Virus record (IMG/VR): IMGVR_UViG_3300030202_003023
Location: 1 to 64,000 of that record
Origin: a virus
Reading direction: 5' to 3' (one strand)
Length of the DNA stretch: 64,000 bases
Positions 19,301 through 30,200 of the stretch are shown here, piece after piece. The notes below the pieces were generated by a model. The model was not told where the DNA came from. It did no database searches and worked only from the letters and a program-made list of their open reading frames with translations. A program made the position numbers and the translations under genes. Position 1 is the stretch's first letter; each line of letters opens with the position of its first letter.

Positions 19301-20067
19301 TTTTTTCTTTCTAATTGGGCTATTTTATCTTTTACAATGGCTTTTGCTTTTGAGACTAATCTTTCTTTTTCAGTAAGTTGCTGATGATTAGGTCCTTTTG
19401 CTTTTTGTAAATAAAACTCTTCTTCTATAACACCTTTTAATTCAGATTCATGTACATGTTCTGATAAAAGTTTAGAAGCTAAATACCTAGCTTCATTTCT
19501 TTCAATACCTATAAGCTCTTTTAATTTTCTAAAAATACCATTTAACCATCTTCTAAAAGCAGATTGCTTTTCTTCATTAGAAAAAATTTTACTTCCCTCT
19601 ATACCTATTGCTCTTGCTAGTATTTCTTTGTCTTGCTTTTGTTTAGGTTCTTCAGCATATTCTTCTCTTACTTCTTTTTCAATTGTTGATCCTTGTAGTC
19701 TTGCAATACCTGCTTTAATTATAGGATTTTCTAACCCTCCTAATAAATCTATAAAAACATGTCCAAATTCATGTATAATAGTATCTCCTTGTAATAATTC
19801 AGGATTAATCTCTACTCTTGCTGTTCTTTCCCCTTCTCTAATTACTTTACCAGAAACATCTAAATCTGAATTTATTACAACAGAAACTCCAGGTAACACT
19901 CTTTGTAGACGTGTAACTAATTTATCTATTTGCCCCATATTAAATTCAGGGATACCTTTAGCTGCTTTTTGATCTTCAGCCCATATACGGTAAGCTTCTT
20001 TTGTATTTCCGTCTAATTTAGCTACTAAGTTTTTCCACTCTTTACTCTTTTTATTTGGACAAATCAT
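16357..20067 (-). CDS. large virion ejection/cargo protein with zincin-like domain, 1236 aa
   Basis: TIIHEFGH motif, C-terminal hydrophobic helices, adjacent to vRNAP as in crAss-like phages. Confidence 0.75.
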   Translation of the reverse strand: MICPNKKSKEWKNLVAKLDGNTKEAYRIWAEDQKAAKGIPEFNMGQIDKLVTRLQRVLPGVSVVINSDLDVSGKVIREGERTARVEINPELLQGDTIIHEFGHVFIDLLGGLENPIIKAGIARLQGSTIEKEVREEYAEEPKQKQDKEILARAIGIEGSKIFSNEEKQSAFRRWLNGIFRKLKELIGIERNEARYLASKLLSEHVHESELKGVIEEEFYLQKAKGPNHQQLTEKERLVSKAKAIVKDKIAQLERKKITTDEDTDVSHQLNLLELKLEEYETEQALLAYVTKADGQLDYINLKFKEYALAYDTNKEVPELDTIKYLRDTAQGYDIALIEDIQRELADQDLTEVMNKITTSIRQLEESYKKLGDKYIKNVIKPDITIIRDIFKRRAELEFVKDENFKKLRGQERVDKLEEFTDKYLKENEQEIKDATEKYLDDFLDIVQKDISIWASFVQNPKDISNDIIQTVSLWIDEADFKTRMESIALVKEAESLYADYIAYFGKKNNPKEQWEPFLSKNSDGSLAPRIISNSRDIEGDLEKWKEIKQGKYKNTAVEDLYDFIVKTQNESDKKIPKTFRLGKKLSVVNKNFYERVADTGILKAIKEGTIDLFKLRKEDTGFGVIEETDAAAKKSLTDTIKVLVKGGQEKKLIPIHFRGEETIKDDERSFDVLSLIILEAHQANNYANKFTLTNKVEYVLDRVKEATVYDRGYKNLLKVDQYDEIQIKEGDSNVYKALQSLIENRIYDVKMTGDPTVNKVVASVRKYVSITNLFGNYLSGGSNLLQGLSMVFMEGAGGSFYGKRNVISAAGKYRKDSINIAADVGRRQDLSKTNLLVELFNANSADSILNEAFSKNNVFKRELSIGSGLIANSTAEHWAQSIGMYAVLDNIKVKNKDGKYINKKGEVVEDRKDAMSLDEAYSVGYQNKKTKKTISNDTYNGLSAKEKKNYFVGVLHLNEKVASTDRSDDLNLFKISSVIRRINRELFGNYDRENKSKFERTAVGSLVTHMRQWMLPGLYKRFRGHKTLWIRDKVENKKNILDFIPLRTIRNTELREHIDLHYNHETQSFEEGMYVSTLRYISGNLKNLLKLKLSIVAADWNNLTLMEKKNIHRTISEAALVVSCIIAQMILSGLAEDDDDDFVILLLTFYARRLQAELLTYVDPREWQRTFRSPAVSLNLLEGTVDALMQIVFDPTERYERGKHKDKNKAVVKLKKITPWKALFRDPKETLKWYQN

Positions 20068-27227: not shown

Positions 27228-30200
27228 TTAACAACGCTTTTTAGTAATATTGTTTACCTGTTCAATCACTCCAGCTTGCATCATTAAGTCAATGCTTTCT
27301 GCTTTATTAAACTTACCTTGCTGTATTTTATCAAACAAAGTTTTATAATTTTTAGGTCTTTGTATTATCTCTTTTAACCAAGTAAATAACCTTTTAAATA
27401 AATTTTCATGTTTAGTTTTAGGCGTTATTGCTTTATAAGTTTCAGGATTTTTCATAAACAGCGCAAATTCATCAGCTAGTTGTTCTTCATAAAAAAGACG
27501 TATTGCATGTTCTCTACTTGCTTTGTGTCTTTTTTGGAAGTCTTCAATTTGCTCTTCAAGTGGCCCTAAAAACAAGCTTTTAGCTTCTTCTATTAGTTCT
27601 GACTGCTCTGCTTCAGTTAAAGCTGTTCTAAATATTCCGTGAAAAGCTTCATGGAAAGCGTCTCCAGTTTTTGCTAATGTGCTTATTTTAATCATACTAT
27701 CAGTAAACATACCTACAACTCTTCTTCCTCCAGAAAGTAATCTTAAGTAATCTTTAACTACTTCTACTTTCATATTTTCAGGAACTATTTCTTCAACTTT
27801 TCTAATTTCTTCTTCAGTTATAGGAGTAGATTCATCAACTGCTTCTCTAACTTTAAACGCTTCATCAGTATTAGGCGTTTGTTTTTTTGATTCTGTTGAT
27901 TTTTTAAGCGCATCAAGGTTGCTTAATGCTTCATCAATACCTGATTGTTTCTTTTCTACAGCTTTTAATAAATCAGACACATCTCCAACAGGATTACCGT
28001 CTAATCCTACATCTGGAGTATGTGTTATTTTGTTATCTTCAACACTTATGTGCTCTTTACCGCTAGAACTATTAGCAGTAATAGAGTAACCTAAAACATC
28101 ATTTGAAGGAGTGTGCTCAATACTTGTTTTTAAATCTAATACTTTTGTTTTAGTATCATTTTCTTCATATTGTAACTGTATTGGAATTATTTCTAAATTT
28201 TTAGCCAATACTCCGTATGTTTTATACATTAACATTCTGTATAAAGAAAGTTGTTCTTTATGTTTCTGTCTTTCAGATTTAATTTTACCGTTTAAAGTAC
28301 TGTCATATTTAGCTGTTCCAGGGTCACTTTTATAACTTTCTTTTAGTCTGTTACCTTTTTGACCCTTCATGTCATAAATTCTCCAAACACCTTTATTATC
28401 TATTGTGATAAGATCAGTAGTACCAGCTATTCCCATTTCAGTGTTATGTAACGTTATTTCATCAGAAACTACATGTTCATTATTAGCTTCAAATCTACGT
28501 CTTAACACTTTTAACTGCTCTATAAATCCTTCAAACTCTTCTTTATTTGCAAGTTTGTAATGTGTGTGTGATTTTAGTTTTTCATTAAAGAAATCTCTAA
28601 CTACTCTATCAACTTTTCTACCTAAAGCTGCTCCTGTCTCCATAATAGCTGTACGGTTTGTAGTAGGAGTTACTATTTTAGATACTCTAATAAGTTGTAA
28701 AAACTTAGTATCTTTTCCAGGTATATTTTTATGTATATAGAAATCATCATTCTCATTTTCTAACACAACAATTTTAGAGTCTGCGCGCATTTTTTCTAAG
28801 ATTGCTAAAGATTCAGCTGGAATAGCTTCCATCTCTACCCTAATTTTTTCTAGTTCAATACCTAGCTTAGCTTTAATGTATAAGTCTCTTTGATTTAATG
28901 CTTTATACTCTCTTTCTAGTCTATCTATTTCTGCGTCAATTTCTTCAATATTTGTATCTTCTCTTCTTTTTCTTCTAAATAAGAAAAGCACTCCCGCCAT
29001 TCCTATTTGAGTACTATCTTTTGGAGATAGTGGAGAATTTTCTTGAAGATTATTGATTTCTTTTGTACCTAAGTAAACATCAACTTCTTCTGCGTATTTA
29101 AGTACATTAGTTACGTACTCATTAGTTACTTTTTCACCTTTAAATACTTTTGCAGCTGTTTTACGCTGATTAGAATAAAGTAGAGGAAGTATGGTTTTAA
29201 ATTCACTTTTACGTGTAGAAGGTGTTTGGTTAACGTAGATATCTAAAAGTATACCCATAGTAGCCAAAGCAGAGTTTCTGTTATTGTAATTACCGAAAAG
29301 ATCTTCAGTTTTATTTATATTAAACTTTTTTCTTACTTTTTTAGGTACACTAAATATTCTTGTTTGGGTAATACCTACAGAAGGTGTACGAGTTTCTCTA
29401 CCTGTAATTCTATTTATTTCAACTTGTGCCCTATCTCTAAGTAATCCTTCATGTCCTCTAAGTCCTCCATAAGTACCAAATGAAGATTCTTGTCCTAAAA
29501 TACCATAAGCTAATGTTGCAATTTCGTTGTATATATCATTAGATACAGTTGGGAACATCTGCATTAAATCAGATTTGTGATTTGCAATAGTTTGTATGTA
29601 CCCTTTTATGGTTTTTTGTGTTTCAGGAAATTCGTGAAACTGTGATAAATTATTTGCTTTTATTGTAATAGGCTGAGATTCAAAAGAATAAGGAGTTCTA
29701 TTTACTAAACTATCTCTGGATCTGAATACTAACTCATTATCAACAAATTCAAATTTGTTATTTGGATTGTCAGGCAATACATAAACTTTAGAATTAGGAG
29801 CCAATCCTCTAGCGTCTAAATCTTCAAGAGATTTTACATTAAAATTAAAACACCCATTACTAAACCTGTTGTTTGTACTGTCTTTGTCATTTAATTTTCT
29901 TTTTCTTACTACACTGTTAGGTACTTTGTGTAAAATAGATGGAACATTAAGCCCCCCTTCATTCTTTAAAAAGAAAGCCTTATCTCCTTTGTATTTACCT
30001 TTTCTGTCTATTGTGTAGATTCCTGCACCTGTTTGCTTATTACCTTGGGACCAGTTAGTTTTAGAAGTATAACCATCTCTTAAATACCTAGTACCGTTTT
30101 CTAGATATGTGGCTTTTTGCAAACCAACTTCTACTCCTGAAGAATTAAAGTAAGCGGATTTAAGTGTGGTTTGCTTATCCCCCTCAGCTGATCCTGTACC

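Follow-up and report, generated by a model that had tools for sequence, protein, structure and literature searches.

Facing cysteines at the protein junctions of a crAss-like phage RNA polymerase cargo module, and their possible role as head-to-tail links

How can a cargo of ~700 kDa that includes an RNA polymerase be delivered through a narrow phage tail? The question concerns crassviruses, the human gut's most abundant phages, and is taken up here for a 64,000-nt stretch of DNA (hereafter ‘the window’; positions 1–64,000 of IMG/VR record IMGVR_UViG_3300030202_003023, which is 89.7 kb long and estimated to be 87% complete; G+C ~31%). Three long minus-strand genes lie head to tail in the window, encoding protein A, the first member of the predicted cargo module (4113 aa; positions 27228–39569), protein V, the predicted virion RNA polymerase (vRNAP; 2374 aa; 20064–27188), and protein B, the last member (1236 aa; 16357–20067). 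A preliminary description of this DNA had proposed that matched terminal cysteines, through disulfide or metal bridges, join the three proteins in gene order into one chain that is released by reduction in the cytoplasm.

The trio contains six cysteines in 7723 aa, and four of the six sit 1–3 residues from the two inner junctions. Protein A ends in ...ITKKRC, its final residue (Cys4113) being encoded by TGT at 27231–27233 and followed by TAA; V begins MKCVIN (Cys3, TGT, 27180–27182) and ends ...LKRCDI (Cys2372, TGT, 20073–20075); B begins MICPNK (Cys3, TGT, 20059–20061). All four codons were read directly from the minus strand. The outer ends of the trio, MGDNKK... in A and ...LKWYQN in B, have no cysteine. 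Of the remaining two, located on the same strand by ORF translation and cysteine count, one is Cys3240, the sole interior cysteine of A, in the sequence SNGC (29850–29852), and the other is Cys1124 of B, which lies in a hydrophobic stretch and is not conserved (16696–16698); V has no cysteine besides its terminal two. Both N-terminal starts, of V and of B, are the first start codon of the open frame, and the M-x-C beginning is kept in relatives. Between A and V there are 39 AT-rich nucleotides (27189–27227) without a Shine-Dalgarno-like purine run, and the stop of V overlaps the start of B as ATGA (20064–20067).

Other ORFs of at least 150 aa in the window have a cysteine content of 1.0%, from which ~77 cysteines would be expected in the trio, compared with the six observed. 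Given uniform placement of the cysteines within each protein, the joint probability of the four terminal positions (≤3 residues from an end) is ~2e-11, a figure that depends on a 3-residue limit chosen post hoc. The computational count agrees with every factual statement in the preliminary description: the cysteines at the junctions, the bare outer ends, and the near cysteine-free interiors, in which the SNGC cysteine of A and the hydrophobic-stretch cysteine of B are indeed the only ones. The KRC and MxC motifs that it had described as shared are present in the trio, but KRC proved to be the local form of a looser pattern.

Homology identifies the system to which these proteins belong. V has 28% identity to gp66 of Cellulophaga phage phi14:2 (tblastn, E 2e-111), its only solved relative is PDB 6vr4 (PDB profile search, E 4.5e-113), and the three aspartates of its DFDID motif, D1461, D1463 and D1465, do not vary among the 30 V homologues of alignment A1; by these measures V is a crAss-type virion RNA polymerase. 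The ORF layout and homology place a giant A before and B after the polymerase; the C-terminal part of A shares homology with the corresponding portion of fused relatives, and A and B parts align to both split and fused relatives. Judged from sequence, A, V and B are the RNA polymerase cargo module of a crAss-like phage. Pfam and PHROGs searches with the whole of A, V and B gave almost no matches, and megablast of the region against phages gave none. Like the trio, g067-g066-g065 of phi14:2 and gp47-gp50-gp49 of crAss001 comprise giant flanking proteins in the same protein order, although identity to phi14:2 is only 28% and A, at 4113 aa, compares with 1797 aa in phi14:2 and 2341 aa in crAss001. 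Passages of the phi14:2 preprint describe the three proteins as virion proteins that are fused in some phages (10.1101/2020.03.07.982082), and passages of the crAss001 structure paper describe gp47, gp49 and gp50 as cargo whose exit requires partial unfolding, the ejection of cargo proteins being presented there as a hypothetical model (PMC10172136). The masses given there for the three crAss001 proteins, 262.5, 276.9 and 154.5 kDa, add up to ~690 kDa. By homology to the phi14:2 and crAss001 proteins, A, V and B would be packed in the virion and ejected.

The terminal cysteines, whose conservation the preliminary description had left to be checked, are kept across Crassvirales and beyond. Of 129 hits for V, with identities of 22% or more, 120 are listed; a cysteine lies ≤8 residues from each of the two ends in 97 of them, from the C-terminal end only in 19, from the N-terminal end only in three and from neither in one; in 61 of those listed, the two terminal cysteines are the only ones in the protein. 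P0005, the nearest homologue that seems to depart from the pattern, is truncated at approximately residue 2242. A cysteine at position 3–5 was found in 20/20 B homologues and is the sole cysteine in 16, while 5/7 database relatives of the C-terminal region of A end with cysteine, the other two being cysteine-less whole A-V-B fusions. In alignment A1, at a mean column identity of 20%, Cys3 and Cys2372 of V are invariant beside the catalytic residues; both columns are also invariant in alignment A2, as is Cys3 of B in alignments A3 and A4. More weight attaches to the full homologue counts, since the choice of rows for A1 went by length and was not a blind one.

Named phages (a set without p-crAssphage, and with no Intestiviridae by name) gave a similar picture. 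The modules of phi14:2 and crAss001, which consist of virion proteins according to the phi14:2 record notes and to passages of PMC10172136, carry the terminal pattern of the trio. Cysteine occurs in the phi14:2 proteins only at the last residue of g067 (1797 aa), at positions 3 and 2179 of g066 (2180 aa) and at position 3 of g065 (1421 aa); in crAss001, gp47 has a single cysteine at C-3, gp50 has Cys5, a second at C-9 and one in its interior, and gp49 has Cys5 alone. The A gene of crAss001 (gp47) lies on the strand opposite gp50 and gp49, and that of cr116_1 is likewise opposite V and B, yet the C-terminal cysteine is still present in both. Five Suoliviridae (cr4_1, cr1_1, cr125_1, cr109_1 and cr118_1) and Flavobacterium phage FpV4, which is not placed in Crassvirales, have an A-V fusion ending in cysteine followed by a B with a cysteine at position 3–5. 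The final cysteine of cr10_1 lies 11 residues from the end; its locus does not include B. Read with table 11, the annotated module genes of cr4_1, cr125_1 and cr109_1 (loci L086, L088 and L089) contain 5–78 in-frame stops, which stop-codon recoding would lead one to expect; in the annotated frames the pattern of terminal cysteines persists.

The distribution of cysteines over junctions was surveyed in IMG/VR loci obtained by an alignment-based scan (best 80 of 473 confirmed), to which L002, a single locus from a single-protein locus search, was added; removal of four duplicates from these 81 left 77. ORFs were taken from the plus strand by a neutral first-ATG rule, BLAST comparison with the unfused examples of other loci decided which ORF parts were A, V or B, and a junction was counted as paired if a cysteine lay ≤8 residues from the end on both sides. 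Both sides had a cysteine at 97/117 intra-module junctions, neither at 12, the right side only at six and the left side only at two. At the outer ends the count was 0/52 for the N-ends of A and 1/69 for the C-ends, that one (L076) being an artefact of the module rule, and the interiors of the module proteins held 65 cysteines in 384,643 aa (0.017%). Control ORFs of the same loci, a small set (n = 74), had a cysteine in the first 8 residues in 2/74 cases and in the last 8 in 1/74. The C-side cysteine was 1–3 residues from the end in 81/98 pairs (overall range 1–7) and the N-side cysteine at position 3 in 56/98 (overall range 2–7). K and N are common in the flanks, with K or N often surrounding the C-terminal cysteine and N-ends often reading M-[S/A]-C, and His is outside the six commonest flanking residues. 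Such flanks would suit a metal site less well than a reactive thiolate.

Fusions and new splits of the module amount to a natural experiment on these pairs. In 28 loci the first ORF is an A-V fusion of 3.1–5.6 kaa: an N-terminal cysteine occurs in 0/28 and a close cysteine pair at the old boundary in 0/28, 15/28 have no interior cysteine, and the cysteines of the V C-end and the B N-end are kept. Fusion L003 matches the C-terminal part of A and the N-terminal part of V from the window only 5 residues apart, with no counterpart of the ~56 residues of the cysteine-bearing tails. The V-B fusion of L046 retains the A|V pair only. Whole A-V-B fusions, in L078 (5636 aa), P0149, P0150 and P0116 (3.5–5.6 kaa), have no cysteine at all, and a further one, in L049, has three in its interior and none at its ends. 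Where the proteins are newly divided, new cysteines are found: B is in two pieces in L028, with a new pair at C-2 and N4; V is cut internally in L032, with a new pair at C-3 and N4; and an 871-aa piece in L031 has a cysteine at both ends.

A FastTree phylogeny built from 75 V-core rows shows six changes of the A|V state, with both states present in the window's own small clade. The N-terminal cysteine tracked the A|V state in 5/5 independent contrasts on supported branches, the corresponding figure for V|B was 3/3, and in the pooled split/fusion contrasts the cysteine followed in 8/8 (sign test, 0.008). As far as the compared proteins tell, the cysteine of the A C-end and that of the V N-end are lost together on fusion and gained together at splits, as are those of the V C-end and the B N-end; this co-variation fixes which ends pair and excludes a single site built from all four cysteines. 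A, V and B appear to behave as one polyprotein that has been cut and re-fused freely in evolution. The head-to-tail chain envisaged in the preliminary description is partly supported, in its pairing and its topology, except that its order is one of proteins and not of genes, as crAss001 and cr116_1 illustrate.

These comparisons demonstrate a conserved pattern, one that is confined to junction ends and that varies pair by pair with splitting and fusion. As to what the pairs do, we give a probability of roughly 0.6 to the reading that A, V and B are joined into a chain by inter-protein disulfides at the facing cysteines. Each facing pair would form its disulfide inside the particle, so that disulfides would rebuild in protein what fusion does in the gene, and the product would be a single linear A-V-B chain with few dangling residues per joint. 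Such a chain could be threaded through the tail, partly unfolded, as if it were one polypeptide, and thiol reductants of the host cytoplasm might then cut it into free proteins. Cysteines at the very ends would make the joined chain linear and threadable, a cysteine-free interior would allow no wrong cross-links during passage, and the outer ends would be bare because the chain begins and stops there.

A disulfide of this kind is known from the cyanopodophage A4 (Anabaena phage A-4L), in whose pre-ejectosome gp27 Cys1715 is bonded to gp26 Cys5, as described in passages of the cryo-EM paper (PMC12002296). These are consecutive ejection proteins, and each cysteine is the sole one of its protein, Cys1715 (of 1717 residues) being 3 residues from the C-end; as in the trio, a lone cysteine near the upstream C-end faces a lone cysteine near the downstream N-end. 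Phage A4 differs in having one joint instead of a chain and in lacking a polymerase, and the relevant passages treat the bond as a local stabiliser, describing no conserved rule (PMC12002296).

Two other groups of podophages provide a comparison. The ejection proteins of N4-like phages (N4 gp50, DEV gp71-gp73), a giant virion RNA polymerase and partners that cross the envelope, are almost cysteine-free, which has been ascribed to passage through the periplasm (PMC11445570). Whole A-V-B fusions resemble them in also lacking cysteine; the trio, however, does not share this absence over the whole protein, having two interior cysteines in 7723 aa and conserved terminal ones, and its cysteine depletion, unlike that of the N4 type, stops exactly at the junction ends. 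The N4-type polymerase belongs to another fold family and consists of one chain, and N4-type proteins are not known to have terminal cysteine pairs. In T7, the internal core proteins gp14-gp15-gp16 are likewise podophage ejection proteins in a row and almost cysteine-free, gp15 and gp16 having none and gp14 (gene 14, L093 3729–4319) a single Cys2 (MCW...), but facing pairs are absent, so the signature is not universal among podophages.

Could the same pairs serve another purpose? They might link the proteins for assembly, by ensuring 1:1:1 co-incorporation or by stabilising the cargo against DNA pressure, rather than thread it at ejection; we consider this rather unlikely, as we do the variant in which the link breaks before or at ejection. 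Passages on phage A4 have the disulfide locking a C-terminal helix into the cleft of the next protein in a static pre-ejectosome (PMC12002296), and translational coupling of V and B through the ATGA overlap fits a fixed stoichiometry. A stabiliser, however, would need neither cysteines 1–3 residues from the ends, where most C-side cysteines (81/98) lie, nor a cysteine-free remainder of ~7.7 kaa, both of which a linear threadable chain requires, and a disulfide formed only after lysis could not guide packaging. A bridging metal ion or other thiol-based link between the facing cysteines would produce the same head-to-tail association with another release trigger. Pairwise co-variation shows that the cysteines act together, not how, and a metal bridge could form in a reducing cytoplasm, in which a disulfide would not easily do so; the lack of any match to a phage thioredoxin or glutaredoxin in the record points the same way. 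Yet there are only two thiols per joint, a single four-cysteine site for all three proteins is excluded by two-protein systems that retain just two cysteines, His falls outside the six commonest flanking residues, and the same signature in phage A4 is a disulfide, all of which make a metal or similar link improbable.

That the terminal cysteines act singly, on the portal or capsid interior, on lipid or on a DNA end, and co-occur through the shared location of the inner ends, is a reading to which the lone Cys2 of T7 gp14, with no partner in gp15 or gp16, lends something, as does the fact that co-variation shows no direct contact between two cysteines. Independent targets would nevertheless not predict that a peptide bond replaces both cysteines; facing cysteines disappear as a pair on fusion and appear as a pair at new splits, no outer end has one (0/52, and one artefact in 69), and we find single action quite improbable. 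Almost no credence can be given to chance, to an artefact of gene calling or to nucleotide signals at gene junctions of which the cysteines would be a by-product: the N-termini do depend on the first-ATG rule, and the V-B overlap is a tight nucleotide context, but the figure of ~2e-11 comes from the window alone, the C-termini are independent of start choice, the cysteine columns are invariant at 20% mean identity, and the distance of the cysteine from the end varies from 1 to 7 residues. The A proteins of crAss001 and cr116_1, encoded on the other strand and still ending with cysteine, also argue against any nucleotide signal at gene junctions, and on these two grounds, opposite-strand A and the variable position, translational coupling or a junction signal was rejected. 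Pairing of the A C-end with the B N-end around a cyclised V, and a shared four-cysteine site, were rejected because A-V fusions lose exactly the A C-terminal and V N-terminal cysteines and keep those of the V C-end and B N-end, and L046 shows the opposite. A remnant of a polyprotein cleavage site was rejected on the lack of cysteine at the old boundary of fused forms, and a split intein because halves of tens of residues could not fit where the cysteines are 1–7 residues from the ends, and because no Pfam family matched at the termini.

Several observations weigh against the disulfide-joined chain. The timing of oxidation is one, since conditions in the host cytoplasm are reducing and searches of the 89.7-kb record (87% complete; DsbA was not searched) for thioredoxin and glutaredoxin had no match; an Erv1 search of the record also gave no match but carries no weight, its control having matched nowhere either. 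The gut habitat is anoxic, and disulfides of purified virions could form in air. In the phi14:2 gp66 crystal, according to passages of the preprint, a handful of residues at each terminus were not resolved (10.1101/2020.03.07.982082). Comparison with phage A4 gave hhalign probabilities of 0.64% for V with gp27 and 0.09% for B with gp26, and the PDB profile search gave no A4 match; with no detectable homology, A4 can serve as an analogy only. As to the tree, fragmented L062, L064 and L080 were left off it (L063 had been dropped earlier as a duplicate of L062), the label of L012 was corrected by hand, and the A|V contrast by itself gives p = 0.06. The C-terminal cysteine is 9–11 residues from the end in crAss001 gp50, cr10_1 and L017. 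Finally, 20/117 junctions lack a full pair, among them two true A|V exceptions in which the nearest cysteine of A is 18 (L073) or 32 (L026) residues from the end; both loci retain the V N-terminal cysteine.

Most of the incomplete junctions are V|V breaks, with a ~940-nt insert or overlapping frames, or junctions into which unrelated ORFs have been inserted. Incomplete breaks internal to V occur in L017, L041, L045, L051, L062, L064 and L080, and inserted unrelated ORFs in L017, L029, L031 and L057. In L045 (11654–12597) and L051 (11362–12309) the V gene is broken by ~940 nt near the catalytic motif, with no cysteine at the break, and the second ORF of L045 starts MFDVDKMY, at the place of that motif; the break fits an intron or some other insert that is excised, whether before translation or after it, better than it fits two separate proteins. 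Unrelated ORFs lie between V and B in L029 (15022–20206), L017 (15576–17297) and L057 (14550–18190). Two of the three in L029 are cysteine-rich (7 cysteines each), and its V C-terminal cysteine is retained; the N-terminal cysteine of B, several kb away, is retained in all three loci.

The two interior cysteines of the trio differ in their surroundings. Cys3240 of A (...RFSNGCFNF) is inside a match to YkuD (L,D-transpeptidase) spanning residues 3098–3250 and below threshold (E 2.8e-4; 21.9 bits versus a Pfam cut-off of 23.4), and is retained in the relative with 82% identity. Cys1124 of B is in the hydrophobic stretch ...AALVVSCIIAQMIL and, among 20 relatives, only P0125 (80% identity) has it. 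B also carries HEFGH at 99–103, with E100 and H103 invariant or nearly so in alignments A3 and A4, and matched no Pfam family; a zincin-like metalloprotease motif is ascribed to phi14:2 gp65 in passages of the preprint (10.1101/2020.03.07.982082). A, unusually long at 4113 aa, has the appearance of a string of enzyme domains, with three HExxH motifs (HEFIH, HEYAH, which has a weak SprT-like match, and HEAFH) and an acidic, E-rich low-complexity stretch from near residue 700.

Upstream of A, also on the minus strand, are ORFs at 39585–42248 (887 aa) and 42208–45909 (1233 aa), the latter with a TTG start assigned by mechanical rule and a 41-nt overlap with the former. Together they have no cysteine in 2120 aa and no cysteine-tipped ends, and in relatives cysteine-free ORFs of 580–930 aa likewise precede A. 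The two are probably further ejected cargo outside the chain.

In the literature, supplements being outside its scope, we found no paper on the terminal cysteines of crassvirus cargo proteins. The word ‘cysteine’ is absent from the texts of the phi14:2 preprint and of PMC10172136 (again excluding supplements). Passages of the latter locate disulfides of the crAss001 particle in the tail and gp57, with none of the disulfide passages concerning cargo proteins, and report mass spectrometry on reduced and non-reduced samples (PMC10172136). Already known, then, are one disulfide-tethered ejection pair, in A4, and the suppression of cysteine in N4-like phages; as far as we found, the crassvirus rule is unpublished.

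That rule, of one cysteine pair per protein boundary, none at fusions and none elsewhere, bears directly on how the polymerase cargo passes the tail, and makes its delivery directly testable on cultured phi14:2 and crAss001. It accounts for the free cutting and fusing of the module in evolution, and it gives the known suppression of cysteine in ejection proteins a positive signal; annotators of metagenomic phages gain an easy way to recognise where cargo proteins end and how they are ordered. More tentatively, and with less than even confidence, cysteine-tipped junctions may be a general, repeatedly evolved podophage device for re-joining a split polyprotein into a disulfide-stitched thread, from which a redox cut would free the polymerase inside the host. 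If so, the signature in the unrelated A4 would represent convergence on the same device, and the difference in redox state between the outside or periplasm and the cytoplasm would act as a location sensor, active RNA polymerase being freed only once inside. From cysteine-tipped ends one could then predict, for uncultured phages, the virion proteins that travel together and the order in which they do so.

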